A stretch of 58,365 nucleotides of DNA from Acidobacteriota bacterium (GCA_003697015.1 RFGL01000338.1:1-58365); one strand, 5' to 3'. Counted from the stretch's first letter, positions 480-46,690 are shown. Made by a program: numbers and translations. Notes: generated by a model not told the origin, from the sequence alone.

Positions 480-1151
480 ATGCCCCCCATGCTCAAGATC
501 CTGCGACGGGCGCGGGTGCTGCCGGTGGTGACGGTGGACCGGGCCGGCGACGCCGTGCCCCTGGCGCGGGCGCTCGTCGCCGGCGGCCTCCGGGTGATCG
601 AGATCACCCTGCGCAGCGACGCCGCCCTCGAGGCCATCCGGCGCATCGCCGGCGAGGTTCCGGCGGCGACGGTCGGCGCCGGCACCGTCACCCGGCCCGC
701 CCAGCTCGCCGCCGCCCGCGACGCCGGCGCCCGCTTCGCCGTCAGCCCGGGCCTGACCGACGACCTCGCCGCCGCCGCCGGCGACGTCGCCCTGCCCTTC
801 CTCCCCGGGGTGAGCACCCCCTCCGAGGCCCTCGCCGCCGCCGGCCGCGGCTTCCGCGTCCTCAAGCTCTTCCCCGCCGAGCTCCTCGGCGGCCCGGCCT
901 ACCTGCGGGCCCTCGCCGGGCCGCTGCCCGAGCTGCGCTTCTGCCCTACCGGCGGCATCGGTCCCGACACCGCCGCCGCCTATCTCGAGCAACCCAACGT
1001 CGTCTGCGTCGGCGGCTCCTGGTTGGCCCCCCGCGCCGCCATCCGCGCCGGCGACTGGCGCCACCTGCGCCGGCTCGCCGCCGCCGCCAGCCACCTCCAC
1101 CGGCCGCCGGCGGGCAGGCCCGCCGCTCCCCAGCCGATCGGTCGCACCTGA
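480..1151 (+). CDS. eda: 2-dehydro-3-deoxyphosphogluconate (KDPG) / 4-hydroxy-2-oxoglutarate aldolase
   Basis: Typical Eda blocks are present: [39 protein letters not shown] (Schiff-base Lys region) and FCPTGGI. Length is about 220 aa. Confidence 0.85.
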
Positions 1152-1172: not shown

Positions 1173-2273
1173 ATGGACAAACTACGTATCCTGATCAGCG
1201 CCTCCCCCGCCGACCGGCGGGTGGCGGAAGCCCTCTTGATCAGCCTCGAGCCCGAGCTCGAGTGCGTGCCGTCGTTCCAGGACGCCGCCGAGCCCGACGC
1301 CGGCCGCTTGAGTGACGTCGTCGCCGACTGCGACCTCGCCCTCTTCGTCACCGGTGCCGGCGACGACGAGGCACCCGCTCCGCCGCTCTTTGCCAGCGGC
1401 CTCTTGGCCGGCATCCTCGGCCCCGAGCGGGTCTCGATCGTGCTGCCGCAGGGAAGCGACGAACGTCCGCCTCTGCCCCAGCTGCGGGTCATGACCTACG
1501 ATGCGCAGCGATTCAAGCAACAAGGCCGTCCCGCCCTCGCCGTCATCGCCGCGACGATCAAGGAATACGCCGAGCGACTCGGCCGGCGGCATCGGCTGCC
1601 CGGCGCCTCGGCGCGCATGATCGAGGACTCCTTCAAGCGCACCGGCTTGTCCAATGCCTACCGCGCCCGCGAGGACGCGCGTCACGACATGCTGAACGAC
1701 GTCGAGGCGGCGCGGCGATCGGTCTCCCTCTACGCCCGGGTCTACATCACCGAGCTGATCAAGCGGCCGCCGCAGTTCGCCGCTGCGTTGAAACGTGCCG
1801 CCACCAACGTTCAGGCCGGCCGGCTGGTCGTGACCCACACCTCGACCAGCCCGCGCAACGCCCCCCTTGCGGGCAAGGCCTGGGAGCTTGAGGACCCGCT
1901 GCGCGAGCGCTGGCAGAGCGTCGAGGAATACCAGCGACACCTCAAACGCAGCGACGACCTCTTCACCAAGACGCATCAGGTCCTCAGCGAAGAGGTGGCC
2001 AGCGGCGAGGCGCAAGCCCGCGCCAGCGTCCTCTTCGTCCGCCGCTACCTGACCAAGGTCATCCCCTACAGCATGGTGGTCATCGACGGCTGCATCCTCT
2101 ACGTCAGCTTCTACTCGATGAGCCGCGACGAGCGCTACGGCAAGTTCGCGCCCACCATGCGCCTGACCTGCGACGGCGACGACGGCGACAGCTGGGCGCA
2201 CGCCTTCCTGCACGAGCAACGCGACATCGACGGCAAGTTCTCCGACGACGGCGAGACCTTCCCCCTGATCTGA
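1173..2273 (+). CDS. TIR-like (CAP12-type nucleotide-binding fold) N-terminal domain protein with an unassigned C-terminal domain
   Basis: ATG lies 22 nt after the eda stop. The N-terminal ~130 aa (LRILISASPADRRVAEAL, DCDLALFVTGAGDDE, GPERVSIVLPQG, LRVMTYD) match by eye the pattern of bacterial TIR-like domains. The C-terminal ~230 aa (GLSNAYRAREDARHDMLNDVEAARRSVSLYA ... IPYSMVVIDGCILYVSFYS) look PLD-fold/DUF5919-like but have no HxK(x)4D motif. The domain calls are by eye only. Confidence 0.6.
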   Translation: MDKLRILISASPADRRVAEALLISLEPELECVPSFQDAAEPDAGRLSDVVADCDLALFVTGAGDDEAPAPPLFASGLLAGILGPERVSIVLPQGSDERPPLPQLRVMTYDAQRFKQQGRPALAVIAATIKEYAERLGRRHRLPGASARMIEDSFKRTGLSNAYRAREDARHDMLNDVEAARRSVSLYARVYITELIKRPPQFAAALKRAATNVQAGRLVVTHTSTSPRNAPLAGKAWELEDPLRERWQSVEEYQRHLKRSDDLFTKTHQVLSEEVASGEAQARASVLFVRRYLTKVIPYSMVVIDGCILYVSFYSMSRDERYGKFAPTMRLTCDGDDGDSWAHAFLHEQRDIDGKFSDDGETFPLI

Positions 2274-2289
2274 GCCGCCCGGTGGACGA

Positions 2290-4125
2290 ATGAAGGCCGA
2301 CGTCGAGCTGGCGATCCGCCGCGAGCACGGGGCTTCGAGGCCGCAGCTGGTCTACGAGCTGAGCTGCGAGAAATGGGGGATCAATCGCAAGACCTTCCGG
2401 TCTTCGCCCCTCGAAGACCAGCCGCGGGTCTACGTCGAAAGGCGACTGGCGGATCTCGGGCGGCACCTCAAGCGCAGCCGTCATCCCCCGACCTCGCGGC
2501 TCGATCGCCTGGCCGACTGGGGAGCGGAGCTCGGCCGGCGTCTGATCCCGCAGGACCTCGGCGATCTCCTCGACGAGCTGGCGGGAGAGGACGGCGAGGC
2601 GCCGACGCTCCTCCTCCAGTCCGAGGATCCCTACCTGCCCTGGGAGCTGCTCAAGCTGCCGCGAACGGTCGCCGGCCGGACTCGCCCGGGCCCCTTCCTC
2701 TGCGAAGCCTTCGCCGTCGCCCGCTGGTTGCCGGGCAGAGACTTCCACTTTCAGCTGCCGGTCGAGCGCATCGCCCTGATGACGCCGGGGGGCGGCGAGC
2801 AGGCGCAGGCGGAAAGGGCCTCCCTCGAGAGCCTGTGCGACGTCAGATCCGTCGCCGCGACGGAAGAAGCCCTGCGTCGGGAGCTGGCCCGGGGCATCGC
2901 CGGCGCCTGGCACGTCGCCGGCCACGCCGAGCTGACGGCGGACCGCGAGCACGTCGAGATCCCCCTCGAAGACGGCGGCTTCTTCACCCCCGCCGCCCTC
3001 AGCAACGTCGACGGCGACGGCCCGCCCGCCCTGGCCTTCCTCAACAACTGCCACAGCGGCCGGGCGGAGCCGGCGCTCAGCGGCATCGGCGGCTGGGCCG
3101 AAGCCTTCCTCACCGCCGGCTGCGGCGCCTTCATCGGTTCCTTGTGGGCGATCGACGGCGGTCGCGCGGCGTGCTTCGCAGAAGCGTTTTACCGCGCCTT
3201 CCTCGGCGGCGCACCGATCGCCCGGGCGGTGCACCGAGCGCGGCGGGCGATCCGCAGCGAAGCGGATCCAACCTGGCTCGCCTACCAGCTCTTCGCCCAC
3301 CCCCTCGCCCGCCGCAGCCGCTGCGACGAGCGGCAAGAACGGCCGCCCAGGCGACCGACCGCCGGCGTCGAGCCGGTCGGGGAAGTCGAGCCCGGGATCG
3401 CGCGTGCCGCGCCGGCGGTCGCGCCCTCCGCGCCCCCCGCCGGCATGGAACGGATCCACGAGATCGACGGCTCGGTGCTGGTCTACGTGCCGGGCGGGAT
3501 CTACCGACTCGGCGACGGCGACGGCTTCGAGGTCACCCTGAACCCGTTCTGGATCGGCCGTTACCCCGTCACCCGCGAGCAATACCAGCGCTTCCTCGCC
3601 GCCGACCCGAAGCGCGCCGAACCGCCCTTCTGGCGCCGGGAGGGCTTCGGCGATCCGCGCCAGCCGGTGGTCGGCGTCTCCTGGCACGACGCCCGGGCCT
3701 ACTGCGACTGGGCCGGTCTGGCCCTGCCCTGCGAAGCCCGGTGGGAAGCCGCGGCCCGCGGACCTGAACGACGTCCCTACCCCTGGGGGAAGCAGCCGCC
3801 GAACGCCGCGCGCGCTTGCTACGGTGCCACGACGGCCGGCCCGGCGCCGGTCGGGCACCATCCGGCAGGGGCTGGGCTCTTCCACCTCCAGGACCTGGCG
3901 GGCAACGTCTGGGAATGGTGCGCCGACGTCTGGGACGACGACTTCGGCCGCGTCCTCGCCGCCGGCGTCGACCCGGTCGGCGGCGTTGGCAACGGCGAGC
4001 GGCGGGCGCGGCGCGGCGGCTCCTGGAGGAGCGATGCCGGCGCTCTCGCGGCCTCGCATCGCAGCTGGCATTGGGTGACGACGCGCCACCCCGACGTCGG
4101 ATTCCGCTGCGTTCTGCCGGCCTGA
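2290..4125 (+). CDS. CHAT (caspase-like) protease domain fused to a C-terminal FGE-sulfatase/SUMF1-type domain
   Basis: ATG lies 16 nt after the upstream stop, with GGTGGA upstream. The CHAT dyad context is WHVAGHAE (His212, nt 2923-2925) and AFLNNCHSG (Cys254, nt 3049-3051). FGE-sulfatase blocks are WIGRYPVTREQY, VVGVSWHDARAYC, YPWG, LAGNVWEWC, RRGGSW and VGFRC. Confidence 0.85.
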   Translation: MKADVELAIRREHGASRPQLVYELSCEKWGINRKTFRSSPLEDQPRVYVERRLADLGRHLKRSRHPPTSRLDRLADWGAELGRRLIPQDLGDLLDELAGEDGEAPTLLLQSEDPYLPWELLKLPRTVAGRTRPGPFLCEAFAVARWLPGRDFHFQLPVERIALMTPGGGEQAQAERASLESLCDVRSVAATEEALRRELARGIAGAWHVAGHAELTADREHVEIPLEDGGFFTPAALSNVDGDGPPALAFLNNCHSGRAEPALSGIGGWAEAFLTAGCGAFIGSLWAIDGGRAACFAEAFYRAFLGGAPIARAVHRARRAIRSEADPTWLAYQLFAHPLARRSRCDERQERPPRRPTAGVEPVGEVEPGIARAAPAVAPSAPPAGMERIHEIDGSVLVYVPGGIYRLGDGDGFEVTLNPFWIGRYPVTREQYQRFLAADPKRAEPPFWRREGFGDPRQPVVGVSWHDARAYCDWAGLALPCEARWEAAARGPERRPYPWGKQPPNAARACYGATTAGPAPVGHHPAGAGLFHLQDLAGNVWEWCADVWDDDFGRVLAAGVDPVGGVGNGERRARRGGSWRSDAGALAASHRSWHWVTTRHPDVGFRCVLPA

Positions 4126-4225: not shown

Positions 4226-5686
4226 GTGGCCAAACGCCAGATCGACATCCGTCGCCTGCGGACCGAGAAACGGATCCTGCGCCAGTGGGCGAAACGCGAG
4301 CGGAGCTTTCCGGGGGATTGCGCCCGCGTCGAACGGTCCGGGGAGCCGGTCCCCAATCCGCGCTCGCAGGAGGAGATCGGCCTCTACCACGACCCGCGCT
4401 CGCGCCGCTACGCCACCGTCGACTTCGACATCGCCGAGCTCTTCCGGCAGGCCGGCAAGGAGGTTCCGACCTTTCTCGAGGCCGGGCCGCGGCGCGAGCT
4501 GTGGTTCGACCCGGTGCAGGTCAATGCGGCGATCGTCACCGCCGGCGGCCTGGCGCCGGGGCTCAACTCGGTGGTCCACTCGATCGTCAGCCGCCACGTC
4601 AATACCTATGGGCTGAATCCCAACGCCGGCAGCGTCATCGGCATCTACGACGGCTTCAAAGGTCTGCTCGACATCCCCGGTCATAAGATCGAGCTCGATC
4701 CGGCCGAGACCATCGACTGGCTGCGCGAGGGCGGCTCCAACCTGGGCAACGTGCGCTACTTCCACCCCGAATCCGCCGGCGGGCTCGACGGCATGGTGTC
4801 GCGCATCTCCCAGAACCTGGAGCTCATGGCGATCAACATCCTCTACGTCATCGGCGGCGACGGCTCGCAGGAGGTGGCCCACCGCCTGGCGCGCGCCAAC
4901 CCCAGGATCGCGGTCATGGGCATCCCCAAGACCATGGACAACGACATCCTCTGGGCCCGCCGCTCCTTCGGCTTCGATACCTCCGTCACCCAGGCGACGC
5001 GGGCGATCAATACCCTGCACTTCGAGGCCCAGTCGACCCGCCGCGTCGGCATCCTCAAGTTCTTCGGCGCCGAGTCCGGCTTCGTCGTCGCCCACGCCGC
5101 TCTGGCCAGCGGCCAGGTCGACCTGGTGCTGATCCCGGAAGCCTTCCTCGGCCTGCGCGCCGACCGTTTCGCCGACTACTGGGACTCGCTCATCCGCCAC
5201 CTCGCCACCATCGTCACCCGGGCGGAGACCAACGCCCACGCCATCATCGTCGTCGCCGAGGGGGTGGAGACCGTGCTCGCCGAGCAGGGCTTCTCGATCG
5301 AAGGCCGGCCGGTTCGCTGCAGCGCCGGAGGACGGCCGGGCAACTTCGTCGAGCTGCTCAAGAAGGCGATTCGAAAGCGGGTACGAAACGTGCGCGGCGA
5401 GACCTTGTCGGTGTTCACCAACGAGCCGCGGCACTACATCCGTTCCGGCCCCGCCAACGCCCACGACCAGGTCTTCTGCGAGCGCCTCGGCGCGCTGGCG
5501 GTCGACAACGCCCTGGCCGGCTTCACCGACTGCATGATCTCGGACTGGTTGTCGGAGTACGTGCTGGTGCCCCTCGAGCTGGTGGTCGGGGGACAGAAGA
5601 GCGTCGACGTCCAGGGGATGTTCTGGAAACAGGTGGAGAACAGCACCGGCCAGCCCAACTCGCCGCTGTCCGAAGGCGGCAGCTGA
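4226..5686 (+). CDS. pfkA: 6-phosphofructokinase (PfkA family, long N-terminal extension)
   Basis: Family blocks are AAIVTAGGLAPGLNSVV, YVIGGDGS and GIPKTMDNDI. The GTG start at 4226 is preceded by GGGAGA. GGDGS (not GGDDS/T) suggests the ATP-dependent type, but that is only an inference. Confidence 0.8.
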   Translation: MAKRQIDIRRLRTEKRILRQWAKRERSFPGDCARVERSGEPVPNPRSQEEIGLYHDPRSRRYATVDFDIAELFRQAGKEVPTFLEAGPRRELWFDPVQVNAAIVTAGGLAPGLNSVVHSIVSRHVNTYGLNPNAGSVIGIYDGFKGLLDIPGHKIELDPAETIDWLREGGSNLGNVRYFHPESAGGLDGMVSRISQNLELMAINILYVIGGDGSQEVAHRLARANPRIAVMGIPKTMDNDILWARRSFGFDTSVTQATRAINTLHFEAQSTRRVGILKFFGAESGFVVAHAALASGQVDLVLIPEAFLGLRADRFADYWDSLIRHLATIVTRAETNAHAIIVVAEGVETVLAEQGFSIEGRPVRCSAGGRPGNFVELLKKAIRKRVRNVRGETLSVFTNEPRHYIRSGPANAHDQVFCERLGALAVDNALAGFTDCMISDWLSEYVLVPLELVVGGQKSVDVQGMFWKQVENSTGQPNSPLSEGGS

Positions 5687-5696
5687 GGCCGCCGGC

Positions 5697-6530
5697 TCAG
5701 CCGCTGCACAGCCAGGCGAAGTCGTGCCGCGGCGCGCCGCTCCAGCCGGCGCCGAGGACGCGCCGCATCACCCACCGCTTGTCGTCGCGCGACAACGCCC
5801 CGCGGCTGCGCTTCAGCCGCCGCCGGCCGCCGGCTTGATCGGCGGCCCCCGGATACTCGCCGGGGTAGAGACCGCCGTCGAAGATCCGCCGCCAGCCGCC
5901 GAAGAGGGTGGCGGGGTGGTCGAGCAGGCGGCAGAGGCTCGGCCGTCCCGCCGCCCGCCGCCGGCCCTCGCTGCGGGCGATCTCCCCCGCCACCGACAGC
6001 GCGCTGGCGGCGAAGCCGGCGACCGCCGCCCGAAAGGCCGTCAGACGCTCCGCGGCCGGATCCGCCGCCATGGTGACGGCGGCGCGCTCGGCGAGCTCGG
6101 CGGCGAAGCCCGGGTCGGTTCCTTCAGCCCGCTCGAGCCACCCCTCGAGCAGGGCGTAGTAGAGCTGCTCGGCGACGTCCACCGGCATCTCCGCCAGCGG
6201 CCGCCAGCGACCGGCGGGCCGGTAGTAGGGGGCGTAGAGCACCAGCCGCGGCAGGGCCAGACCGGGCAGCAGGCGGGCGCTGCGACTGCCCTCGGGACCG
6301 AGCATCAGCTCCAGATCGCGCACCGGGGTGCTCGCCGGCAGGTAGAAGGCCATCCGCCAGTCGTCGCGCCGGTGCAGCACCAGCCACAGGCTGGGCGCGA
6401 GCTCCGCCAGACCGGCGAGCGGCAGGCCGGCGGGGGCCGACGGCGGGCTCAGCACCGGCCGCAGGGCGGCGCCGTCCGGGCCGAGGGCGACGGCCAGGGT
6501 CAGCAGCAGGGCGCTCAAGCTGGTCTGCAT
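5697..6530 (-). CDS. hypothetical protein (N-terminal signal-like hydrophobic segment)
   Basis: 277-aa ORF with ordinary amino-acid composition, co-directional with the downstream end of the DUF4388 operon. No recognisable domain. Confidence 0.5.
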   Translation of the reverse strand: MQTSLSALLLTLAVALGPDGAALRPVLSPPSAPAGLPLAGLAELAPSLWLVLHRRDDWRMAFYLPASTPVRDLELMLGPEGSRSARLLPGLALPRLVLYAPYYRPAGRWRPLAEMPVDVAEQLYYALLEGWLERAEGTDPGFAAELAERAAVTMAADPAAERLTAFRAAVAGFAASALSVAGEIARSEGRRRAAGRPSLCRLLDHPATLFGGWRRIFDGGLYPGEYPGAADQAGGRRRLKRSRGALSRDDKRWVMRRVLGAGWSGAPRHDFAWLCSG

Positions 6531-6703: not shown

Positions 6704-8317
6704 TCAGACGCCGCGCTGGAGCTGCCGCCGGAGCAGCTCGTTCTCGAACGCCACCCCCACCTGGGCGGTGGCCAGCTCGAGCAACTCGATGTCCTCGATG
6801 GCACGGTTGGACGAGCCGTTGTCGGTGTAGACGACCGAGATCACGCGCTCGGCACCGAGCACCGGGAAGACCACGACCTGGCCCGAGCGCGGGCGGCCGA
6901 GAAGGGCGGCGAAGTCGTCCGGCAGATTGGCCTGATCGAAGCTCATGGCGCGCAGCTGGCCGTCGCTGATGCAGTGGGTCAGGACGTTGTCGGCGTCGAG
7001 GCTGATGGTGAAGTTGCGGGTTTCCTCAGCCAGGGCCTCGCCGTTGGCGCCGAAGCCGAAGGCGCCGATCGCCAGCAGGTGGTCGTCGCGCACCAGGAAG
7101 AGCACCGCCCGCTCCACCGACTCGGAGATGACGTGCATCAGGTTGAGGGCCATGGTCGCCGACAGCAGGCCGGAGCGGATGTCCGCCAGCACCCGCCGCA
7201 GGCGGGCGAAGCCGGCGCGCACCGTCCGCCGATTGCCGGCGGTGCCCCCCGAGGCGTCCTGGAGCGTGCGCACCAGGCTGGTGAAGCAGGCGGCCAGGGC
7301 TTCGGGATCGCCGGGGATCGCCGCCACCGCCCCGGCCTCGAAGGCCCGGCGGGTGAGCTCCTGCGAATCGATCAGGGCGATCACCGAGGAGCGCGGCCGG
7401 GAGCGGCGCACCGCCAGCAGATCCTCGATCGAGTGGTTGCCGTCGCGCAGATCGAGCACCACGATGGTCGGCGACGGTTCGCCGGGCAGACGGGTGCCGG
7501 CTTCGCGCAACGGCACCCGTACCACCCGCGCCATGTCCGCCGGGACGATCTCCGCCACCTGGTCGGCGAAGCGGCGGTCGGCGGAGACGATCTGCAGTCG
7601 CCGCAGCTGCGGCTCGGGCTCCTCCTCGTCGCTCCCCTGGCCGAGGTCGATGTCCTCCAGCCCCTCCAGGGTCTCCGCCACCGACGGCAGGTCGACCCGC
7701 TGCGTCGGCCGCGGCGTCTCCGGGCTCACCTCCGGCAGGCGCGACGCCATGCCGCTCTGGGCCACCCCGCGCAGGGCGGCGCCGGCGTCGGTGGCGGCAT
7801 CGATCGTCCGCCGCCGCTCGTCGAAGATGCGCGTCGCCTCGAGCAGCACCATCTGGGTGTTGAGATCGAGCTGGGGGATGACGTCGCCGGGATACATGGC
7901 GATGTCGTCGATCGGGCGCAGCTCGTCGAGGGCGAATTCGAACGAGCCGGTGGTCCAGGTCACCAGCTCGTAGATGGTCTCCTCGATCTGCTTTTCGATC
8001 GCCCGCCGGATGTCGCTGAAGGCGAGGATGTCGTTGCTCACCAGCAGCTGGCCGAGGGATTGGCGCGGCTTCTGCGTCTTCTGCTGTTCGATCAGCGAGC
8101 GCAGCTGCTCGGGGGTGATCAGGCCGTCGGCGATCAGCAGCTCGCCGAGACGGCGGGTGCCGGGACCGGAGGCGCTGACGATCTGACCGCGGTGGAAGCC
8201 GATCTCGGCCTCCCGGTTGCCCTGCACCAGGGACAACGTCCCGGTCCGCCGGCCGAGATGGATGAACTGCATCACGTCGGCGAGGGAGACGTCTTCGAGC
8301 TTGCCGTTGAGGCTCAT
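6704..8317 (-). CDS. DUF4388 domain protein with receiver-like and GAF-like C-terminal regions
   Basis: The N-terminus GKLEDVSLADVMQFIHLGRRTGTLSL...EIGFHRGQIV is the typical DUF4388 signature. The middle region has a receiver-like block (TIVVLDLRD...VIALI). The C-terminal ~160 aa look GAF-like. Confidence 0.75.
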   Translation of the reverse strand: MSLNGKLEDVSLADVMQFIHLGRRTGTLSLVQGNREAEIGFHRGQIVSASGPGTRRLGELLIADGLITPEQLRSLIEQQKTQKPRQSLGQLLVSNDILAFSDIRRAIEKQIEETIYELVTWTTGSFEFALDELRPIDDIAMYPGDVIPQLDLNTQMVLLEATRIFDERRRTIDAATDAGAALRGVAQSGMASRLPEVSPETPRPTQRVDLPSVAETLEGLEDIDLGQGSDEEEPEPQLRRLQIVSADRRFADQVAEIVPADMARVVRVPLREAGTRLPGEPSPTIVVLDLRDGNHSIEDLLAVRRSRPRSSVIALIDSQELTRRAFEAGAVAAIPGDPEALAACFTSLVRTLQDASGGTAGNRRTVRAGFARLRRVLADIRSGLLSATMALNLMHVISESVERAVLFLVRDDHLLAIGAFGFGANGEALAEETRNFTISLDADNVLTHCISDGQLRAMSFDQANLPDDFAALLGRPRSGQVVVFPVLGAERVISVVYTDNGSSNRAIEDIELLELATAQVGVAFENELLRRQLQRGV

Positions 8318-8330
8318 CGGAGGAGCGGAG

Positions 8331-9056
8331 CTAGGTGCCGCGGACCAGCTGCACCAGGCTCTCCAGGGTCCGCAGTTTGCGGTCGGTATTGGAGTAGACC
8401 CGCGCCGCGAACAGGGCGGACGCGGCGTGGGCGGCGAGCAGGTCGAGCAGATCGCGATCCTCCGCCCGCAGGATCGCCTTGTGATCGAAAAGCTTGAGCA
8501 CCACCAGCACCCCGACGATCGCCTCCTGCACCCGCAGCGGCACGGCGGCGATCGCCTCCGAGAACTCGTCCGGGCCGAGGCGCAGCACCCCGTCCTCGAG
8601 CGCGGCGTCGACCAGCGGATCGCCGCCGCGGTAGCGGTCCCCGGCGTAGAGCCCGCTCGGATCCTGCTCCAGGCCCTTGGCGAGGGCGATCTCGCACTCG
8701 CTGCTGCCCTCGAGCCGCAGCAGCAGCACGAAGCGCTCGGCCCCGAGCAGATCGACGGCGATCTCGGCGATCGTCGCCTGCACCTCGTCCGGGTCGAGGG
8801 TGGCGTGGAGCTGGAAGGTGGCGACGTAGAGATTCATCAGGCGGCCGAGCTGGTGCTCGGCCTCGACCAGGCGCGCCGACAGCTCCTCGCGGTCGCGCTC
8901 CACCTCCTCGAGCTTGGCGTCGAGGGAGGGCCGCTCGGCGAGCGCCTCGGCGGCCTCCGCCGCCCGCCCCTCGACCAGCTGGTCGAAGAGCTCACGGGCC
9001 CGTTCGAGGGTGGCCCGCAGCTCGACGATGGCGTCCGATGATGCGACCTTCTCCAT
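8331..9056 (-). CDS. coiled-coil + GAF domain protein
   Basis: The N-terminal ~70 aa are heptad-like and charged (LEEVERDREELSARLVEAEHQL). They are followed by a GAF-like fold (IAEIAVDLLGAERFVLLL...VGVLVVLKLF). Confidence 0.65.
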   Translation of the reverse strand: MEKVASSDAIVELRATLERARELFDQLVEGRAAEAAEALAERPSLDAKLEEVERDREELSARLVEAEHQLGRLMNLYVATFQLHATLDPDEVQATIAEIAVDLLGAERFVLLLRLEGSSECEIALAKGLEQDPSGLYAGDRYRGGDPLVDAALEDGVLRLGPDEFSEAIAAVPLRVQEAIVGVLVVLKLFDHKAILRAEDRDLLDLLAAHAASALFAARVYSNTDRKLRTLESLVQLVRGT

Positions 9057-9069
9057 GAGTCCGGGCCAG

Positions 9070-9429
9070 CTAGAGGCGCTGAATCACCTCCAGCAACTCC
9101 TGGTTGCCGAACGGCTTCTTGATGTAAGCCGAGGCGCCGGCTTCCAAGCCCCGGATGGTGTCCTCTTCCTTGCCTTCCGTGCTGATGATCACCACCGGGA
9201 TGTCCTTCAGCGCCTCGTTGGCCTTGACCTGCGACAGGAATTCGAGGCCGCTCATCCGCGGCATGTTGATGTCGAGCAAAATGAGATCGATGTCCGCGTC
9301 GCTGCCCAGGCACTGCAACGCCTCCAGGCCGTCGTGGGCGTGCACCAGCGCGTACTGACGCAGCAGGACCTCGAACATTTTGTGGATCAGCTTGGAATCA
9401 TCGACAACCAGGATCTTCCTCGGTTGCAC
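9070..9429 (-). CDS. cheY: CheY-like single-domain response regulator
   Basis: ILVVDDS, LILLDINMPRMSG and AYIKKPF are receiver motifs. I place the start at the GTG at 9429, preceded by AAGGAGAG (minus strand). The 153-aa ORF start at 9531 adds a non-homologous extension. Confidence 0.85.
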   Translation of the reverse strand: MQPRKILVVDDSKLIHKMFEVLLRQYALVHAHDGLEALQCLGSDADIDLILLDINMPRMSGLEFLSQVKANEALKDIPVVIISTEGKEEDTIRGLEAGASAYIKKPFGNQELLEVIQRL

Positions 9430-9718
9430 CGCTCTCTCCTTGCTCGAAGTCCATGCGATCTCCGGCACGGGCCCGCGCGGAGAGCCCGCGCCCCATCCCA
9501 CGCGAGCTGCCTCTTGCCTGGTCACCGTCAACCGGGCGAATACCGGACCGGTAGCCTAGCCCAAGCGCCCTGGCCTTGCAAGTGTGGCCAGCGGCTTGAC
9601 AAGCGGTCGCTCGCCATCCCAAACTGATTCGCTCGGCTCAAGCCAGGGCTGCTCGTTCGCCTGCGACGGCGTGCCGTCGGAGCCTCGGCGGCGCGGGCCG
9701 GGCCCGAGGGTGCATCGC

Positions 9719-11308
9719 ATGGACGCAGCGTTCCGAGAGCTACTGGGGGAGTTCCTGCTCGAGGCGGGCGAGCGCATCGACGCCGTCGAGGCCTTGCTCC
9801 TCGGCCTGGGCAGCGCCGAACGGGGAGCGAGGCGCGACGCCCTCGCCCGCCTGCGGCGCGAGCTTCACACCCTCAAGGGCAACGCCGGCATGATGGGGAT
9901 GGGCGACCTGCAACAGCTGGCCCACGCCCTGGAGGACGAGATCGAGTCCCTCGATCCCGCCGCACCGCAGATCGACGATCTGCTCGCCGGCCTCGACGCC
10001 ATGCGCGACCACCTGCGGCAGATCGCCGGCGGCGACGCCGCCGGCGACGCCACGGCGGCCGCCGAGATGCCGCCGGCCTTCTTCCTCGGCGGCGGCGACG
10101 CCAGCGTGCGGGTACCGTTCGCCAAGATCGATCAGCTGGTCGAGATGCTGGCCGAGATCCTGATCTTCCGCAACCGCCTGAGCGACGCCATCGCCAGCGG
10201 CCTGCCCGAGGCCCTCGACCTGGATCCGGCGGCGGCCCTGGCCCGCGCCCGCGCCGCCTGGGAGACGGTGGAGGAGACCCACGCCGCCCTGGAGAAGACC
10301 CTGAACCGGCTGCAGGAAGCGGTGACCGACCTCGGCATGGTGCCCCTGCAACTGCTCTTCCGCTCCCTCGGACGGATCGTCCACGACGAGTCGCGGCGCG
10401 AGGGCAAGGAGGTCACCCTCGACGTCGACGGCGGCGAGACGCCGATCGACAAGACCCTGCTCGAGACCGCCGGCGAAGCCCTCGGTCACCTGGTGCGCAA
10501 CGCCGTCATCCACGGCATCGAGACGCCGGCCGAACGGCGGCGCGCCGGCAAACCGGAACAGGGCACGGTGCGCGTCGGCGCCGCCATCGAGGGCGGCGAG
10601 GTGATGATCGAGGTGCGCGACGACGGCGCCGGCATCGACCTCGAGGCCCTGCGCCGCCTGGCGCCGCCGGCCGCCGGCGACGCCTACCCCGCCGCCGGCG
10701 AGGAGGCGCTCTTCGCCCTGCTCTTCGAAGAGGGGGTCACCACCCGCGGCGGCGCCGACCTGTCGGCCGGCCGCGGCGTCGGCCTGGCGGCGGTGAAGAA
10801 GAGCGTCGAGCGCCAGGGGGGGCGCATCGAGGTGAGCTCGAGCGCCGGCCGTGGCAGCGCCTTCGTCCTGCGCCTGCCGCTCACCGCCTCGATCCTGCGC
10901 TCCCTGCTGCTGCGGGTCGACGGCGAAGACTACGCCCTGCCCCTGACCACCGTCACCGAGACCCTGAGCCTCGAGGCCGGCGATCGCCACGAGCTCAATC
11001 ACGCCGGGGTGCTGCGCTGGCGCGGCGGCGTGTTGCCGCTGCTCGACCTCGGCCTGGCCTTCGCCACCGCCGAGGAGCCGCGCCGGCAGGGCTATGCGGT
11101 GGTGATCGAGAGCGGCGGGCGGCTGCGCGCCCTGGCCGTGGACGACATCATCGGCATCCGTGATATCGTTGTCCGCGGTCTGGATCCGGTCGTCGGGCAA
11201 CCGATCGGCATTTCCGGCTCGACCATCCTGGGCGACGGGCGGGTGATCATGATCCTCGATCCTGCGAGCTTGATGACCATCCCGCCCTTTGTGGGTGCGG
11301 AGCGATGA
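9719..11308 (+). CDS. cheA: chemotaxis histidine kinase CheA
   Basis: The Hpt phosphorylation site is LHTLKGNAGMMG. HATPase blocks are HLVRNAVIHGIE, DDGAGID and GRGVGLAAV. A C-terminal CheW-like domain is present. I chose the ATG at 9719 (MDAAFRE) over the upstream in-frame ORF start. Confidence 0.85.
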   Translation: MDAAFRELLGEFLLEAGERIDAVEALLLGLGSAERGARRDALARLRRELHTLKGNAGMMGMGDLQQLAHALEDEIESLDPAAPQIDDLLAGLDAMRDHLRQIAGGDAAGDATAAAEMPPAFFLGGGDASVRVPFAKIDQLVEMLAEILIFRNRLSDAIASGLPEALDLDPAAALARARAAWETVEETHAALEKTLNRLQEAVTDLGMVPLQLLFRSLGRIVHDESRREGKEVTLDVDGGETPIDKTLLETAGEALGHLVRNAVIHGIETPAERRRAGKPEQGTVRVGAAIEGGEVMIEVRDDGAGIDLEALRRLAPPAAGDAYPAAGEEALFALLFEEGVTTRGGADLSAGRGVGLAAVKKSVERQGGRIEVSSSAGRGSAFVLRLPLTASILRSLLLRVDGEDYALPLTTVTETLSLEAGDRHELNHAGVLRWRGGVLPLLDLGLAFATAEEPRRQGYAVVIESGGRLRALAVDDIIGIRDIVVRGLDPVVGQPIGISGSTILGDGRVIMILDPASLMTIPPFVGAER

Positions 11309-12042
11309 GCGGGAAGGAACGTCGAGGGCGAGAAAAAGGCGGCAAGAAACCGGCCGCCCGCAAGAAGCCGGCTGCCGCCAGCCGGGCGAAGGGCCGGAGC
11401 CCGAGCAAAAGCCCGACCAAGAGCCCGACGAAGAAGGAAACCGCCCCCGTCACCCTGCCGGCCTACGGGCTGGCCGAGGACGTCCTCGGCGGCGCAGCGG
11501 CCAAGGCGGCCGGGAGCGGCGAGGAGCGGATCTACGACTTCGCCGCGGCGCTGGAAGCCGAAGACGCTCGCCGTCTGGAGGAAGCGCCGGCCAGGCCGCA
11601 GCGCCTCGAGACCTGGGTCACCTTCGGCCTCGGCGACGAGACCTACGGCCTGCCGGTCGCCCCGGTGCAGGAGGTATTGCGGGTCACCGGCATCACCCGG
11701 GTGCCCCACGCCCCGCGCCCGATCCGCGGCGTCACCCAGGTGCGCGGCCGGGTCATCCCGGTGGTCGACCTCGGTTTGCGCCTCGGCCTCGAGCCGCGGA
11801 CCATCGACCGCGCCAGCCGCATCCTGGTGGTCGCCTCCCGCGGTCATCGCCTCGGCCTGCTGGTCGATCGCGTCGACCAGGTGGTCCATCTCGACCTGGA
11901 ACAGGCCCAGGCGCCGCCGGAGGACGTGGTGACCGTCGAATCGGATTACATCTCCGCCGTCTACCACCTCGAAGACCAGCTCATCCTGCTGCTCGACGTC
12001 GACCGCGTTTTGATCGTCCATGAAGTTTCAGGAGCTGCTTGA
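11305..12042 (+). CDS. cheW: CheW coupling protein with a Lys/Pro/Ser-rich basic N-terminal tail
   Basis: An ATGA overlap joins it to the cheA stop. The CheW domain is WVTFGLGDETYGLPVAPVQEVL...VIPVVDLGLRLG...LGLLVDRVDQV. The first ~48 aa are KKPAARKKPAA / KSPTKSPTKK type. Confidence 0.85.
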   Translation: MSGKERRGREKGGKKPAARKKPAAASRAKGRSPSKSPTKSPTKKETAPVTLPAYGLAEDVLGGAAAKAAGSGEERIYDFAAALEAEDARRLEEAPARPQRLETWVTFGLGDETYGLPVAPVQEVLRVTGITRVPHAPRPIRGVTQVRGRVIPVVDLGLRLGLEPRTIDRASRILVVASRGHRLGLLVDRVDQVVHLDLEQAQAPPEDVVTVESDYISAVYHLEDQLILLLDVDRVLIVHEVSGAA

Positions 12043-12043
12043 C

Positions 12044-12856
12044 ATGCGTTCGACGATCTTCCATCCCCGCGCCGTCGCCGTCGCGCTCTGCTGCGCGCTG
12101 CTGGGCGTCGCCTCCGCCGCCCCCGGCCACGCCCAGAACCGGGCCTTCAAGGTCGTCGTCAACGGGCAGAATCCGACCGATGAGCTGCCGAAGGAGGAGG
12201 TGTCGCGTCTCTTCCTCAAGAAATTGCGCAAATGGCCGGGCTGGGATGAGCAGGTGATGCCCGCCGACCTGGAGGTCGACTCGCCGATCCGCGAGGCCTT
12301 CTCCCTCGAAGTGCTCGGCCGCAAACCGATCCAGGTCCACCGCTTCTGGCAGCGCCAGCTCTTCGCCGGCCGCGACGCGCCCCCACCGATCTTCTCCTCC
12401 GATGCCCAGGTGCTCGACTTCGTGCGCAGGAATCCCGGGGCGATCGGCTACGTCGCCAGCGACACCAGCCTCGGCGACGGCGTCAAGGAGCTGGCGATCA
12501 AGGAATTCCAGATCGTGGTCAACACCCGAAACCCGACCAGCGTGCTGGCGAAGAGAGAGGTGGCGGACATCTACCTCAAGAAGATCACCGTCTGGGAGGG
12601 CTGGCAGGAACCGATCGTTCCGGTCGACAATCTCAGCCTGTTTACATTCTTCAGCTTCGAGATCTTCGGCAGAAAAAGCCGTCTGCTCGACGAGCTCTGG
12701 CTGCGCAAACAATATCGCTACAACCTGGATCCTCCCCCGCGGCTGCGTTCGAACGAAGAGGTCTTGGACTACGTTCGCACCACCCCCGGGGCCATCGGTT
12801 ACGTGTCGAGAGACGCCGTGCTCGGAACCGGCGTCAAGCTGGTAACGGTCGAGTAA
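12044..12856 (+). CDS. secreted tandem PstS-like (PBP-like) substrate-binding domain protein
   Basis: The ATG at 12044 lies directly after the cheW stop (TGACATG). The signal peptide is AVAVALCCALLGVASAAPGHAQ. There are two repeats of a ~115-aa module ending in GAIGYV(A/S). Confidence 0.7.
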   Translation: MRSTIFHPRAVAVALCCALLGVASAAPGHAQNRAFKVVVNGQNPTDELPKEEVSRLFLKKLRKWPGWDEQVMPADLEVDSPIREAFSLEVLGRKPIQVHRFWQRQLFAGRDAPPPIFSSDAQVLDFVRRNPGAIGYVASDTSLGDGVKELAIKEFQIVVNTRNPTSVLAKREVADIYLKKITVWEGWQEPIVPVDNLSLFTFFSFEIFGRKSRLLDELWLRKQYRYNLDPPPRLRSNEEVLDYVRTTPGAIGYVSRDAVLGTGVKLVTVE

Positions 12857-12915
12857 GCGCGATTCCGGCGCCCCACGGCCCGCGACCGGCGGGCTGAACT
12901 GTGAGGAAGAGTAAG

Positions 12916-15120
12916 ATGTTTCGACTCTTCGATCGATTGCGCCTCAGCACCAAAGTGTTGCTGAGCCCGATTCTCGCCTTCGTCGGCGTTGCGGTCATCT
13001 TCGGCATCACATGGTTTTTCGGCTCGCGCATCGGCGACCTGGCGGACGACATCACCCAGGAGTACTTCCCCGGCTTCGATCTGACGCGGGACGTCAAGGA
13101 GCAGCTCAACCGGTTGCCGGAGATCTTCGTCGACGCGGTGACCCAGATGGACGACTTCATCCTCGACGAAGACGCCCAGGAGGTGCACGAGAGAATCCTC
13201 GACCTCTTCGAGCAAGCCAAGGACAACGCCACCTTCGAGCCGGAGGCGAGCAAGCGCCAGGCGATCCTCGCGTCGCTCAGAGCCGACGCGAAAGCCCTCG
13301 CCCAGGCAGCTGCCGCAGCGGAAGGGTCGGCGCAGGAGCAGCGCGCCGCGCTGGAGAAGCGGGCCGCGGACTTCGCCGATTTGGTCCGCTTCCTCGAAGA
13401 GCAGTGGTCGGCTACCGATGCGGGTTCCAACAAACCGTTGGTCGAGACCGTGAAAGAAGCCTACGAAAGCTACTTCCAGCTCGCCAAGGCGACGGTCCTG
13501 GAACAGATCCGCGCCCAGGAGGGGAGCGCCGGCGAGATCATGCCGCCGGAGATGGCGGCCAAGCAGGCGGCCCTCAAGGAAAGCACCGCCGGCATCATCA
13601 CCCAGATCAACGCCCTCGCCGAGGTCGGGCGTACCGGCCTGCGGGTCGAGCTCGACAGCCTGCGGCGGGATCAGCGGCGACAGGTCATCGCCGTCGGCGC
13701 CATCACCATCGCTCTGCTCCTCGGCCTGGGAGGGCTGGCGCTCCTGGTCTACAACTCGGTCAACCAGCCGATCAACCTGGCGGTGCAGGTCGCCGACCAC
13801 CTCGCCCAAGGCGACGTCTCGACCGACTTCCGGGTCGACCGCGACGACGAGATCGGCCGCCTGCTCCAGGCGATGGAGCGCATGCTCACCTACCTGCGGG
13901 AGATGGCCGACCTGGCGGGCTCGATCGCCACCGGCGACCTGCGCCATCAAGTCGAGCCGCGCTCCGACGCCGACCTCTTCGGCAAGGCCTTCCGCGACAT
14001 GTCGGAGAACCTGCGGCAGATGATCGGCCGCATCAAGCAGGCCGCAGCCCAGGTCGCCCAGGCCTCCGACGACATCGCCTCGTCCTCGGCCCAGATCACC
14101 AGCGGCGCCGAGAGCCAGTCGGCGTCGGCCGACGAGACCCTGTCGACCATGGTCGAGATCGCGGCCCAGATCGACAGCGTCGCCAAGTCGTCCCAGGCAC
14201 TGGCGATCAACGTCGATCAGACCTCCTCCTCGATCCAGGAGATGGGCGCCTCGATCGAGCAGGTGGCAAAAAACTCCACCAACCTCCTGACCTCGGTCGA
14301 GGAGACCTCGTCGACGATCGAAGAGATGACCGCCTCGATCCAGTCGATCGAAGCCAAGGTGCGGGTGGTCGACGACGTATCCCGCGAGGCGGCGGGCATC
14401 GCCCAGAACCGCGGCGAAGAGCTGTCGAAGAAGATCGGCGGCATCAGCGTCGCCAGCCAGGACATCGGCAAGATCGTCGGCATCATCGAAGACATCGCCG
14501 ATCAGACCAACCTGCTGGCGTTGAACGCCGCCATCGAGGCGGCACACGCCGGCGACGCCGGCCGCGGCTTCGCGGTGGTCGCCGAGGAGGTCAAGCGCCT
14601 GGCCGAGCGCTCGGTCGCCTCCACCCGCGAGATCGCCGCGGTGGTGGAGAACGTGCAGAAGTCGACCGCCGAGGCGATCGCCATGACCAAGGAGATCCTC
14701 GAGCAGATCATCGGCTCGGTGACCCGCACTTCGGAGCTGGTGGGGGAGGTCTACGCCGCCACCCAGGAACAGAGCGGCGGGGCGGCGCAGATCTTGAACA
14801 CCACCAGCCACATGCAGACCGTCACCCGCCAGCTGGCGGCGGCGGCCAAGGAGCAGGCCAACGGCGCCCGCGACATGATGAAGGCGGTGGAGACCATGAA
14901 CCGCATGACCCAGCAGGTCGCCGACGCCAGCCGCGAGCAGAAACAGGGCGGCGATCTGGTGGTCAAGGCGGTGGAACGCATCGCCCAGATCGCACAGCAG
15001 AACCTGGCCGCCGCCGAGCAGCTGTCGGGCAACACCCAGAACCTGTCGCAGCAGGCCGAGGGCCTGCTGAGCGTCGCCGAGATCTTCACCATCGAGACGG
15101 CGAACGGAGCCGACACGTGA
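12916..15120 (+). CDS. methyl-accepting chemotaxis protein (two TM segments, helical periplasmic domain, HAMP, MCP signalling domain)
   Basis: The ATG at 12916 is preceded by AGGAAGAG. HAMP is [13 protein letters not shown]. The highly conserved tip is [34 protein letters not shown]. Confidence 0.85.
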
Positions 15121-15256
15121 TCGCCGCGTGCCGAGCTCGTACCACCCCCCTTGCGGCCGGCCGCCAGGCCGGCCGTTTCCATCGGGATGCACCCCGCGAG
15201 AAGCGCCGGCGGGCGCCTGCCGGCGTCGCCGCGGACGGGGTGCCGGAGGCCCCGCG

Positions 15257-17158
15257 ATGACCATGAACGGAGTACCGCAATCCCTCGACACCAGCTGGGA
15301 GGAGTGCATCGCGCTGCTCGACAGCCTGCCCTCCCTGTCGGTCGAAGCACGCGTCGCCGCGCTGGAGAAGCTGATCCGCAACCCCAGCCCGGGCATCCGC
15401 AGCCGCGCCCTGCGCATGGGCGCCGCCGTGCTGCCCGACGAGCAGCTCAAGAGCTACCTGCGCAGCGAGGCCGACGACGTGCTGCGCAACGCCGGCGTCG
15501 AGATGCTCAAGATGCGCGGCAACCGCGGCTTCTCCCTCGCCCTGCAGCTGCTCAAGGACGACGATTCGGACATCGTGCTGCAGGCGGTGGTGGTGCTCAC
15601 CGCGCTGCGCGATCCGCGGGCCCTCGAGCCCCTGCGCGGGGTGCTGCATCACCAGGACCCGAACGTGGTGCAGGAGGCGATCGTCGCCATCGGCCAGCTC
15701 GGCGACGCCCGTGCCATCCCCGACCTGCTCGGCTTCCTGGAAGCCGATCCGTGGCTGCAGATGGCCGCCGTCCAGGCCCTGGGGAACCTGCGCTCGCCGG
15801 TGGCGGTGCCGCATCTGAAGCGCCTGCTGACCGACCTGATGGCCGGGCCCCTGGCCGCCGAGGCCCTGGCCCGCATCGGCGGCCAGAGCGCCTTCCTCGC
15901 CCTGGTGCACCACTGGCTGCGCTTCCGCAACGAGCTCGACACCGAGACCGTCCTCGGCCTCCTGGCCCACGTCCTCGAAGGCCTGCCGCGAGCCCCGAAA
16001 GAGGTGCCCGACTTCCGCGCCGCCCTGCTCGACCTGCTGGAGGACGATCGCGAGACCATCCGGGTCACCGCCGCCCGCTGTCTCCTCACCCTCGGCGCCA
16101 GCGCCGAGGACCGCAAAGCGCTGGTGCTGGTGGCGGACTTTCACCAGGAGGCGTCGGTGCTGCCGGCTTGCCTCCACCACCGCAGCGACCTGATCGGCTA
16201 CCTGATCGCCCAGACCGGCAGCCAGCGCACCTGGGGCTTTCTGCTGGCGGCCCGCTTCCCCGACGAGACGCCGATCCCGACCCTCGCCGACGCCCTCGCC
16301 TCGACGCCGCTGCCCGACCAGTTCGGTCCCCTGCTGCGCGCCCTGGAGAAAATCCGCCACCCCGACCTCGCCGAGCCGCTGCTCGGCTTCTACCTGCGCC
16401 AGCCGGAAGAACAGCGGCCGCTCCTCCACCCGCTGCTGCGGATCCACCGCGCCTCCCTCGCCGCCCACCTCGAGGACGCCGGCCTCGAAGACGCCACCCG
16501 GGTGGTGCTCAAGGCGCTTCTCGGCGTGCCGGAGAACGAGCTGGTGGCCGAGATCACCGCCCTGCCCCATGAAGAGCGGGTGAGAGCGATGGCCGAGCTC
16601 GTCGGCCAGGACCGCCTGATGCGTCTCCTGCCCTGGGACGCCTGGCTGCGCGAGGCCCCCGAGTCGTACGGGCCGGTGGCGGCCGAGTTCGCCTCCAAGG
16701 TCGGCCTGCGGGAGCTCGCCGCCAGTTTCCGCCAGCTGCTGGAGAAACGGCCCGAGCCCTACCTGATCCGCACCCTCGGCGAGCTCGGCGACCGCAAGAG
16801 CGTCAAGCTCTTGATCGGCTTGCTGGAGGAGACGAGCTCCCCGCTCGAGCCGATCGTGATCGAAAGCCTGGGCCGCATCGGCGGGCCGCAGGCACGCCAG
16901 GCGCTGCGCGGCGCCACCCGCTCGCACCGCGCCCAGCGCCAGCGAATGGCCTTCCGTGCCCTGGCACGCTGCGCCACCGAAGAGGACGACGCCATCTTCC
17001 GCGACGCGATCAGCAACCAGGACTGGTACATCCGGCTGTCCTGCGCCGAGGTTCTGGGCCGCTTCTCGCGACCGGAGAACCTCGCCGCCCTGGCCCAGCT
17101 CGCCGCCGACCCGGTGCCGATCGTCGCCCAGCGGGCGCTGTCGTTTCTCGAGAGCTGA
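15257..17158 (+). CDS. HEAT-repeat (PBS-lyase-type) protein
   Basis: Repeated units of the form D..V...A..ALG.L.D.RA...L are present (DIVLQAVVVLTALRDPRALEPL, NVVQEAIVAIGQLGDARAIPDL, WLQMAAVQALGNLRSPVAVPHL, and C-terminal copies). I chose the ATG at 15257 (MTMNG). Confidence 0.7.
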   Translation: MTMNGVPQSLDTSWEECIALLDSLPSLSVEARVAALEKLIRNPSPGIRSRALRMGAAVLPDEQLKSYLRSEADDVLRNAGVEMLKMRGNRGFSLALQLLKDDDSDIVLQAVVVLTALRDPRALEPLRGVLHHQDPNVVQEAIVAIGQLGDARAIPDLLGFLEADPWLQMAAVQALGNLRSPVAVPHLKRLLTDLMAGPLAAEALARIGGQSAFLALVHHWLRFRNELDTETVLGLLAHVLEGLPRAPKEVPDFRAALLDLLEDDRETIRVTAARCLLTLGASAEDRKALVLVADFHQEASVLPACLHHRSDLIGYLIAQTGSQRTWGFLLAARFPDETPIPTLADALASTPLPDQFGPLLRALEKIRHPDLAEPLLGFYLRQPEEQRPLLHPLLRIHRASLAAHLEDAGLEDATRVVLKALLGVPENELVAEITALPHEERVRAMAELVGQDRLMRLLPWDAWLREAPESYGPVAAEFASKVGLRELAASFRQLLEKRPEPYLIRTLGELGDRKSVKLLIGLLEETSSPLEPIVIESLGRIGGPQARQALRGATRSHRAQRQRMAFRALARCATEEDDAIFRDAISNQDWYIRLSCAEVLGRFSRPENLAALAQLAADPVPIVAQRALSFLES

Positions 17159-17173
17159 GAGGAGCCCGCGGCG

Positions 17174-46615: not shown

Positions 46616-46690
46616 AACGATCCTCCTCGCAGAGCGTACGACTTTACTGTATCTTGGCTGGAAAGCCCTCATCACCACCAGGAGATGCCG

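Follow-up and report, generated by a model that had tools for sequence, protein, structure and literature searches.

The question raised by the locus described here is whether two neighboring genes of conflict-type appearance form a single immune system or have simply come to stand side by side. The locus lies in an Acidobacteriota bacterium (GCA_003697015.1, contig RFGL01000338.1), of which a stretch of 58,365 nucleotides (nt), hereafter the window, was analyzed. An earlier note on this DNA had described a gene for a TIR-like protein (gene 1) followed by a gene for a CHAT protease fused to an FGE-sulfatase domain (gene 2), and had proposed that both constitute one undescribed immunity system. 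The layout it gave is confirmed: two co-directional open reading frames (ORFs), 16 nt apart, between eda and pfk, with the coordinates and the Pfam matches of both flanks in agreement. The proposal of one system fares worse, as the relatives of gene 1 pair with a HAD gene, those of gene 2 pair with Peptidase_M48 and RDD-domain genes, and the two families do not meet in any of the 17 loci compared. The reading to which we incline, with some reserve, is that of two independently derived conflict-type genes placed side by side by chance, rather than that of a conserved two-gene system. The features to which the text refers are the following.

480..1151, + strand: eda (KDPG/KHG aldolase), upstream flank (PF01081, E 2e-68), which stops 21 nt ahead of gene 1
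1173..2273, + strand: gene 1, 366 amino acids (aa), degenerate CAP12-type TIR plus a "domain X" of predicted phospholipase D (PLD)-like fold (ORF, PF10137 of the relatives, AlphaFold2 model, Foldseek)
1173..1583, + strand: gene 1 residues 1-137, TIR-like fold from the CAP12/PycTIR family (family profile against PDB), predicted to be catalytically dead
1368..1400, + strand: gene 1 residues 66-76, 'EAPAPPLFASG', replacing the family motif '..ARDNVIFExG' (alignments)
1602..2270, + strand: gene 1 residues 144-366, domain X, PLD-like predicted fold, with no HKD motif and no Pfam family
2290..4125, + strand: gene 2, 611 aa, CHAT protease fused to an FGE-sulfatase-type (FGS, C-type-lectin-fold) domain (Pfam, homologues)
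2797..3267, + strand: gene 2 residues 170-326, CHAT core (PF12770, E 8e-18; 65.3 bits, cut-off 24)
2923-2925 and 3049-3051, + strand: codons of His212 and Cys254, the CHAT dyad of gene 2
3529..4113, + strand: gene 2 residues 414-608, FGE-sulfatase-type domain (PF03781, E 5e-42; 144.6 bits, cut-off 23.3)
4226..5686, + strand: phosphofructokinase (pfk), downstream flank (PF00365, E 2e-53), which begins 100 nt past gene 2

Each Family Has Its Own Partner

Adjacency of the homologues in unrelated genomes had been set beforehand as the test of a single system. By tblastn, a CHAT/FGE gene was found in none of eight loci with members of the gene 1 family, and a gene-1-like gene in none of nine loci with members of the gene 2 family; the pairing is known from a single contig, deposited twice. 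Nor did profile comparison reveal an adaptor (EAD) domain shared by the two proteins, and PADLOC, also proposed as a check, returned no system-level match for the locus.

What accompanies the relatives of gene 1 is a HAD gene, which adjoins the family gene in five of the six other independent loci. It encodes a protein of ~280 aa, with the motifs 'DLNETL' and 'GDSASDIPMF', and stands directly downstream, overlapping or at most 18 nt away (L001-L005, L088, L093). In P0083, P0085, P0088 and P0094 the association goes as far as fusion, with HAD_2 (PF13419) joined C-terminally to domain X, as for example in DUF4062-X-HAD. Since the N-terminal part of these proteins is variable, they are referred to below as effector-X proteins, and the loci that carry them with HAD are:

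L001/L002, 2298-4300
L004, 1526-3544
L005, 202-1667
L088, 315-2580
L093, 293-1572

The ~280-aa partner was also considered as a possible CHAT homologue, and this was discarded, there being no similarity and the protein being a HAD. Within the window, no HAD partner was found by tblastn anywhere in its 58 kb. A relative whose TIR is likewise degenerate, P0055, has kept its HAD partner. Of the effector-X plus HAD family PADLOC recognizes only the TIR part; the effector-X family is small and undescribed, its domain X is without a Pfam model, and the combination with HAD is a candidate for a new type of defense system. A separate arrangement was observed in L087 (1002-6975), where the genes downstream of CAP12-TIR-X encode, in place of a HAD, a UPF0029/IMPACT-type (YigZ-like) protein and a 228-aa protein of unknown kind, and where the opposite strand carries a kinase-STAND-TPR gene.

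The relatives of gene 2 keep different company. In all four long-contig loci of full-length homologues, the CHAT-FGE gene adjoins genes for a Peptidase_M48 protein (~350 aa) and an RDD-domain protein (~190 aa), both orthologous between loci (50-74% and 37-60% identity, respectively) and oriented convergently to CHAT-FGE in three of them and co-directionally in one:

L089, 5001-8505
L090, 3277-7094
L091, 5001-10809
L092, 5001-8655

Neither M48 nor RDD was found in the window, and a full-text literature search for CHAT, M48 and RDD together found no paper. In L091 the M48 and RDD pair is flanked by two CHAT-FGE genes. CHAT-only relatives were seen in other settings: in L006 (1404-6233) one of them stands behind a larger M48 protein, amid HicAB and PIN toxin-antitoxin genes, and a 387-aa protein upstream of it was examined as a relative of gene 1 and rejected; in L008 (3602-10381), L009 (1546-8325) and L010 (4300-8804) a CHAT-only relative precedes a CsgG-domain protein of ~917 aa, stop and start codons overlapping, with a CHAT-NB-ARC protein after the latter in two of these loci and an ECF sigma factor and a kinase-TPR gene upstream.

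Gene 1: A TIR Domain Without Its Active Site

The protein of gene 1 gives no match in Pfam (E<=0.1), NCBIfam, PADLOC (TIR/PycTIR, E<=1), PHROGs or PDB sequences; these direct profile searches came up empty, and its ancestry is visible only through its relatives and its structure. Among 5.8 billion proteins only three close relatives exist (38-42% identity, full length), all of which match PF10137, the TIR of CAP12/Pycsar, with E values of 1e-27 to 1e-31, while the profile of the family matches the solved Cap12 (TIR-STING)/PycTIR structures (PDB 9lmq, 7un8 and 8jsj; 1e-20 to 1e-22). An AlphaFold2 model from an alignment of 53 sequences, with a mean predicted local distance difference test score (pLDDT) of 91 and a predicted template modeling score (pTM) of 0.73, superseded a run with four sequences that was poor (pLDDT 62); its top Foldseek matches are TIR-STING proteins, covering the N-terminal half.

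The NADase site of SfSTING is composed of S10, R78, N80, the catalytic E84 and D110, the last supplied in trans (PMC9402430). In gene 1 the equivalents of R78, N80, E84 and D110 are Pro, Pro, Ala74 and Pro, so that four of the five active-site residues are replaced; in the alignments 'APAPPLFASG' stands where the family has 'ARDNVIFExG', and is preceded by a deletion of 9 residues. The motif is retained by ~18 of the ~21 CAP12-type family members, the exceptions being the window protein, P0051 (E to K) and P0055, and in the TIR half as a whole gene 1 keeps 19 of 36 family-conserved columns (53%), against 77-100% in other members. Thus, the N-terminal domain is TIR-like by descent only and, to judge from these residues, almost certainly not an NADase. 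The CAP12-type assignment of the earlier note stands as regards descent and fold, on the evidence of PF10137 in the relatives and of Foldseek, and falls short in that the protein has no profile match of its own and its active site is destroyed.

Domain X: A Predicted Sensor

The C-terminal domain, which the earlier note had left unassigned, has no Pfam match even at E<=10, the families of the PLD clan included, nor any PDB sequence match. A profile of its residues 144-366 finds only 62 clusters (representatives at 50% identity) in 1.84 billion proteins. The predicted fold resembles those of the PLD superfamily: against the PDB, Foldseek returns Streptomyces PLD, vaccinia F13, NucT, PLD3, FAM83 and the C-terminal domain of TrmBL2 (entries 1v0v, 9fhk, 7e0m, 6ehi, 4urj and 8v07, and also 5bpi), with probabilities mostly of 0.98-1.0 (0.93-0.96 for 7e0m; 0.84, E 3e-3, for 8v07), and against the viral structures of BFVD a PLD phosphodiesterase comes on top, together with F13-like envelope proteins. 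The canonical HxK(x)4D motif is absent from the conserved columns of the family alignments, where the equivalent stretch, on manual reading, is 'P-Y-S-x4-D...V-S-F-Y'. The 'HLKRSD' of domain X was tried as a canonical HKD motif and rejected, since its spacing is wrong, its Lys is variable and it falls in a predicted helix.

Within gene 1 this domain has been kept. It preserves 50 of the 59 family-conserved columns (85%; 69-94% in other members) and all the near-invariant residues of the 53-member alignment are present. Across the family, the domains ahead of X are CAP12-TIR (19), TIR_2 (6), DUF4062 (6) and SEFIR, TIR, patatin and EAD11 (1 each); recent work has established DUF4062 as a TIR-like NADase with a part in defense. 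Swappable effectors in front of one constant domain are, as a matter of sequence architecture, the pattern of a sensor domain, and X is predicted to be a ligand-sensing one.

Other collections added little. A scan of the genome collection for the gene 1 family gave no match, and scans for domain X gave only two new loci in metagenomes and none among viruses. Plasmid matches were rejected as family members, being TIR-only or DUF4062-only, with one longer match, on a Vibrio plasmid, that proved to be a shorter, different protein.

Gene 2: A CHAT Protease with a Lectin-Type Domain

Both domains of gene 2 score above their gathering cut-offs, as listed above, and H208 and H212 ('WHVAGHAE') and C254 ('FLNNCHSG') are invariant across the alignment of 19 family sequences. 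The reading of gene 2 as a CHAT-FGE-sulfatase fusion with its His/Cys dyad intact, made in the earlier note, is borne out at this level, H212 and C254 lying in invariant columns. PADLOC yields a weak SAVED_CHAT match (E 7e-5) over residues 252-316, that is, 65 residues of the catalytic core.

The FGE-type half is of another nature. Its catalytic Cys pair is missing: the solved FGE 6s07 reads 'GGSFLCHESYCNRYR' where the window protein reads 'GGSWR---SDAGALAASHR', with a gap opposite 'LCHESYC'. The NCBIfam equivalogs EgtB, SenA, GldK and PvdO fall far under their cut-offs (84 bits vs 360 for EgtB, 69 vs 420 for SenA). By its residues and scores, this domain is not an enzyme of the FGE, EgtB, OvoA or SenA kind and is classed as non-catalytic. 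Domains of this type (FGS) have been predicted in silico to be lectin-fold sensors of invaders, attached to TIR, caspase and kinase effectors and often diversified by diversity-generating retroelements (DGRs) (PMC8195603; PMC10907252), and the earlier idea of FGE-type domains as sensors fused to effectors agrees with that published work (PMC8195603). No DGR template-like repeat of the 3' region of gene 2 was found in the window.

About 40 full-length CHAT+FGE homologues exist, which align at 37-42% identity across 95-100% of the query and stem in part from metagenome-assembled genomes (MAGs) of Thermoanaerobaculia and other Acidobacteriota, and the fusion is therefore an existing family. This family, the destroyed TIR site of gene 1 and the missing FGE cysteines are points absent from the earlier note. 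The FGE subtype of gene 2 (~50% identity) was also observed fused to TIR_2, to Ser/Thr kinase (with or without TIR_2 or SEFIR), to NACHT and to EAD (P0146-P0176), and the effector-FGS proteins of the Acidobacteriota MAGs look like a lineage-specific expansion.

One System or Two?

In the reading that we prefer, each gene would be understood from its own family. In intact effector-X members, domain X would bind a phosphorylated small-molecule danger signal that turns the effector on, and the HAD phosphatase would clear the basal ligand and so prevent self-intoxication, following a logic that has been shown experimentally for the Metis system. Gene 1, with its NADase site destroyed, its HAD gene absent and X conserved, would be a disarmed sensor that probably still binds the ligand; in other words, judging from its residues, it is probably a pseudo-enzyme member of the effector-X(+HAD) family. 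A dead effector fits the loss of a "safety" phosphatase, the order of events being left aside. In gene 2, the lectin-fold FGS domain would recognize a ligand derived from an invader or from the envelope, and would thereby activate the caspase-like CHAT protease; gene 2 is typical of the CHAT-FGS family, except that the M48 and RDD neighbors customary there are missing, and belongs to the effector-lectin kind already predicted.

A number of points weigh against this reading of a chance neighborhood: (i) the comparison rests on a small sample, of 6 other independent loci for the gene 1 family and 9 for that of gene 2, and the source lineage is unsampled, the best match of its phosphofructokinase (PFK) being 53% identical; (ii) the 16-nt gap and the same orientation suggest co-transcription, and a search between the genes found neither promoter nor terminator; (iii) the CHAT-FGE gene occupies the exact slot that the HAD gene has in the relatives of gene 1, and could be a functional displacement; (iv) domain X is apparently maintained despite the dead TIR, in such a way that gene 1 still does something, for which a joint role with its neighbor is one option; (v) TIR, CHAT and FGS domains recur together, TIR_2 being fused to CHAT in one protein (P0022) and to FGE in many; (vi) and finally, the immune roles of both families are ones that we infer from sequence.

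Several of these points converge on the idea of a co-opted hybrid, according to which gene 1, its TIR dead and its HAD lost, would have been kept as an X-based sensor or regulator that controls the CHAT-FGS protein or is cleaved by it. The co-directional genes 16 nt apart without a detected terminator, the CHAT-FGE gene in the usual HAD slot, the recurrence of the three domains in fusions and the difference between X (85%) and the TIR half (53%) in conserved columns, which argues for a retained function other than NADase, all speak for it. However, the pairing is confined to one contig, the families neither co-occur in the 17 loci nor have an adaptor domain in common, each of them is linked, with strong conservation, to a different partner, and P0055 retains its HAD despite a degenerate TIR, from which it follows that loss of the TIR alone implies no switch of partner. 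We consider this hybrid unlikely.

Somewhat more doubtful is the view that gene 2, perhaps together with gene 1, lies outside immunity altogether and serves regulated proteolysis or envelope or stress signaling, for example in a CHAT/M48/RDD proteolytic pathway, with expression from a metabolic operon eda-gene1-gene2. In its favor, the gene 2 family is partnered by M48 and RDD proteins, at times close to ECF sigma factors, as is typically seen in envelope proteolysis and signaling; the genes around the pair serve housekeeping and chemotaxis, and neither a mobile element nor a defense gene is found in the window; the codon signature is native, and no DGR-type repeat diversifies the FGE domain. 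Against this, the domains fused to or neighboring the CHAT family are highly variable (TIR_2, DUF7363, TCAD7, NB-ARC neighbors), as is typical of conflict systems, one CHAT member lies amid toxin-antitoxin genes, TIR_2, SEFIR, NACHT and kinase effectors are found joined to the FGE subtype of gene 2, and the family of gene 1 has swappable NADase and patatin effectors.

A more specific form of cooperation would be a rewiring, in which a Metis-like X sensor, stripped of NADase and HAD, was re-coupled to the CHAT-FGS protein in the HAD slot, so that a small-molecule sensor would gate a lectin-bearing protease; this we hold to be improbable. Finally, that gene 1 is a functionless decaying relic, an intact ORF on its way to a pseudogene whose adjacency to gene 2 means nothing, would suit the loss of four of the five NADase residues, the deletions in the TIR half, the missing HAD partner and the silence of all Pfam, PADLOC and NCBIfam models, but is very improbable, given a full-length ORF with a G+C content at third codon positions (GC3) of 0.90, a domain X conserved within the range of intact members with every near-invariant residue in place, and a decay limited to one domain, unlike the pattern expected of a dead gene; this confinement of the loss to the TIR half, with X retained, argues against a simple pseudogene.

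Comparison with Known Systems

With two independent genes as the preferred reading, each has its own closest systems. Gene 1 shares with CAP12 (the TIR-STING of the cyclic-oligonucleotide-based antiphage signaling system, CBASS) and with PycTIR (Pycsar) its TIR ancestry and the plan of an N-terminal TIR followed by a C-terminal regulatory domain. It differs from them in the loss of the equivalents of R78, N80, E84 and D110 and of any profile match of its own, and in a C-terminal domain whose predicted fold is PLD-like, and not STING, SAVED or cyclic nucleotide (cNMP)-binding. A cyclase gene is also lacking: no CD-NTase or pyrimidine cyclase gene was found near gene 1, whose neighbors are eda, CHAT-FGE and pfk.

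The closest parallel in logic is Metis, in which the sensor-effector MisA/MisC is activated by N6-methyldeoxyadenosine monophosphate (m6dAMP) released as the phage degrades the host genome, and the HAD phosphatase MisB removes the basal ligand, preventing self-toxicity (bioRxiv 10.1101/2025.11.05.686725). Common to Metis and to the family of gene 1 are an effector and a putative ligand-binding domain tightly linked to HAD, and effectors of the NAD+-depleting class; the HAD_2 fused to domain X belongs to PF13419, the Pfam family reported for MisB, the likeness being at the level of the Pfam family. On the other side, Metis has either a PUA-like domain joined to a calcineurin-like one (MisA) or a protein with three transmembrane segments (MisC), where the family of gene 1 has TIR, DUF4062 or patatin with a PLD-like X. 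As the sensor and effector domains differ, effector-X plus HAD is not a member of Metis; by analogy it may work in a Metis-like manner, with a PLD-like sensor and a putative phosphorylated ligand. The copy in the window, with no HAD gene and a dead effector, cannot therefore work as a Metis-type system.

As for domain X itself, the closest known group is that of the non-catalytic members of the PLD superfamily (FAM83/DUF1669 and the C-terminal domains of the TrmB family): its predicted fold is alike to PLD-family structures in two libraries, and it is set apart by the lack of a sequence-level match to the PLD clan and of a canonical HKD motif.

Among CHAT proteases, those of defense include SAVED-CHAT, of type III CRISPR/CBASS-like systems, and the TPR-CHAT Csx29 of type III-E. 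Gene 2 has in common with them the caspase-like CHAT fold and the His/Cys dyad, but has neither the SAVED nor the TPR domain, and its CHAT is unaccompanied by CRISPR or cyclase genes. The general plan of gene 2, a caspase-like protease with a non-catalytic FGE-type domain, is that of the effector-FGS fusions (Kaur et al. 2021, PMC8195603) and of the orthocaspase-FGE-sulfatase proteins, which are common in cyanobacteria (PMC8283722). The differences from the effector-FGS systems lie in the protease, which is CHAT and not Peptidase_C14, in the lack of a STAND NTPase, EAD or DGR in the window (no STAND NTPase, reverse transcriptase or EAD is found among its annotated genes), and in the M48 and RDD genes that are the conserved neighbors of the family.

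Significance

The pair is unsupported as a new two-gene immune system and should not go forward as one, and the interest of the locus lies mostly in the two modules found along the way. Both are conserved and uncharacterized, and would be better targets: effector-X plus HAD would apply the Metis principle, by which a danger metabolite is sensed and a phosphatase suppresses the basal signal, with a different sensor fold, and the triad of CHAT-FGS, M48 and RDD ties a caspase-like protease to membrane proteolysis. Gene 1, for its part, would be a case, found in nature, of a TIR effector rendered harmless with its sensor domain retained, which bears on the neutralizing or repurposing of toxic immune effectors.

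Surroundings of the Locus

The setting is that of an ordinary chromosome. The G+C content of the window is ~72%, GC3 is 0.90 in gene 1 and 0.89 in gene 2, and the coding signature of both is like that of the neighboring genes. A hairpin after gene 2 is not significant (z-score -1.55). No mobile-element or defense genes are found among the annotated genes of the 58-kb window, where the wider neighborhood is made up of eda, pfk, DUF4388/GAF proteins, a Che cluster and further genes of the chromosome; the locus lies outside any defense island.

The lineage is unsampled, no close genome existing in a set of 185k species, and the best PFK match being only 53% identical, sister genomes could not be compared. 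In 75 loci eda and pfk are not syntenic.

Other genes of the window were noted in passing. From 6704 to 18013 lie a DUF4388-GAF protein, a GAF protein and a complete chemosensory cluster (CheY, CheA, CheW, PBP-like, MCP, HEAT-repeat, CheR). A 564-aa protein with beta/gamma-crystallin and Inhibitor_I36 domains is encoded at 26479-28173 (+), and two well-supported ORFs with GC3 0.94 and no Pfam match at 24530-26317 (-; 595 aa) and 5697-6530 (-; 277 aa). At 45797-50020 (+) there is a tricorn-type protease of 1407 aa (PD40 repeats, Tricorn C1, PDZ, S41), after which come a CarboxypepD_reg-TonB receptor and a hybrid histidine kinase of the 7TMR-DISM type, a content that fits an Acidobacteriota-like chromosome.

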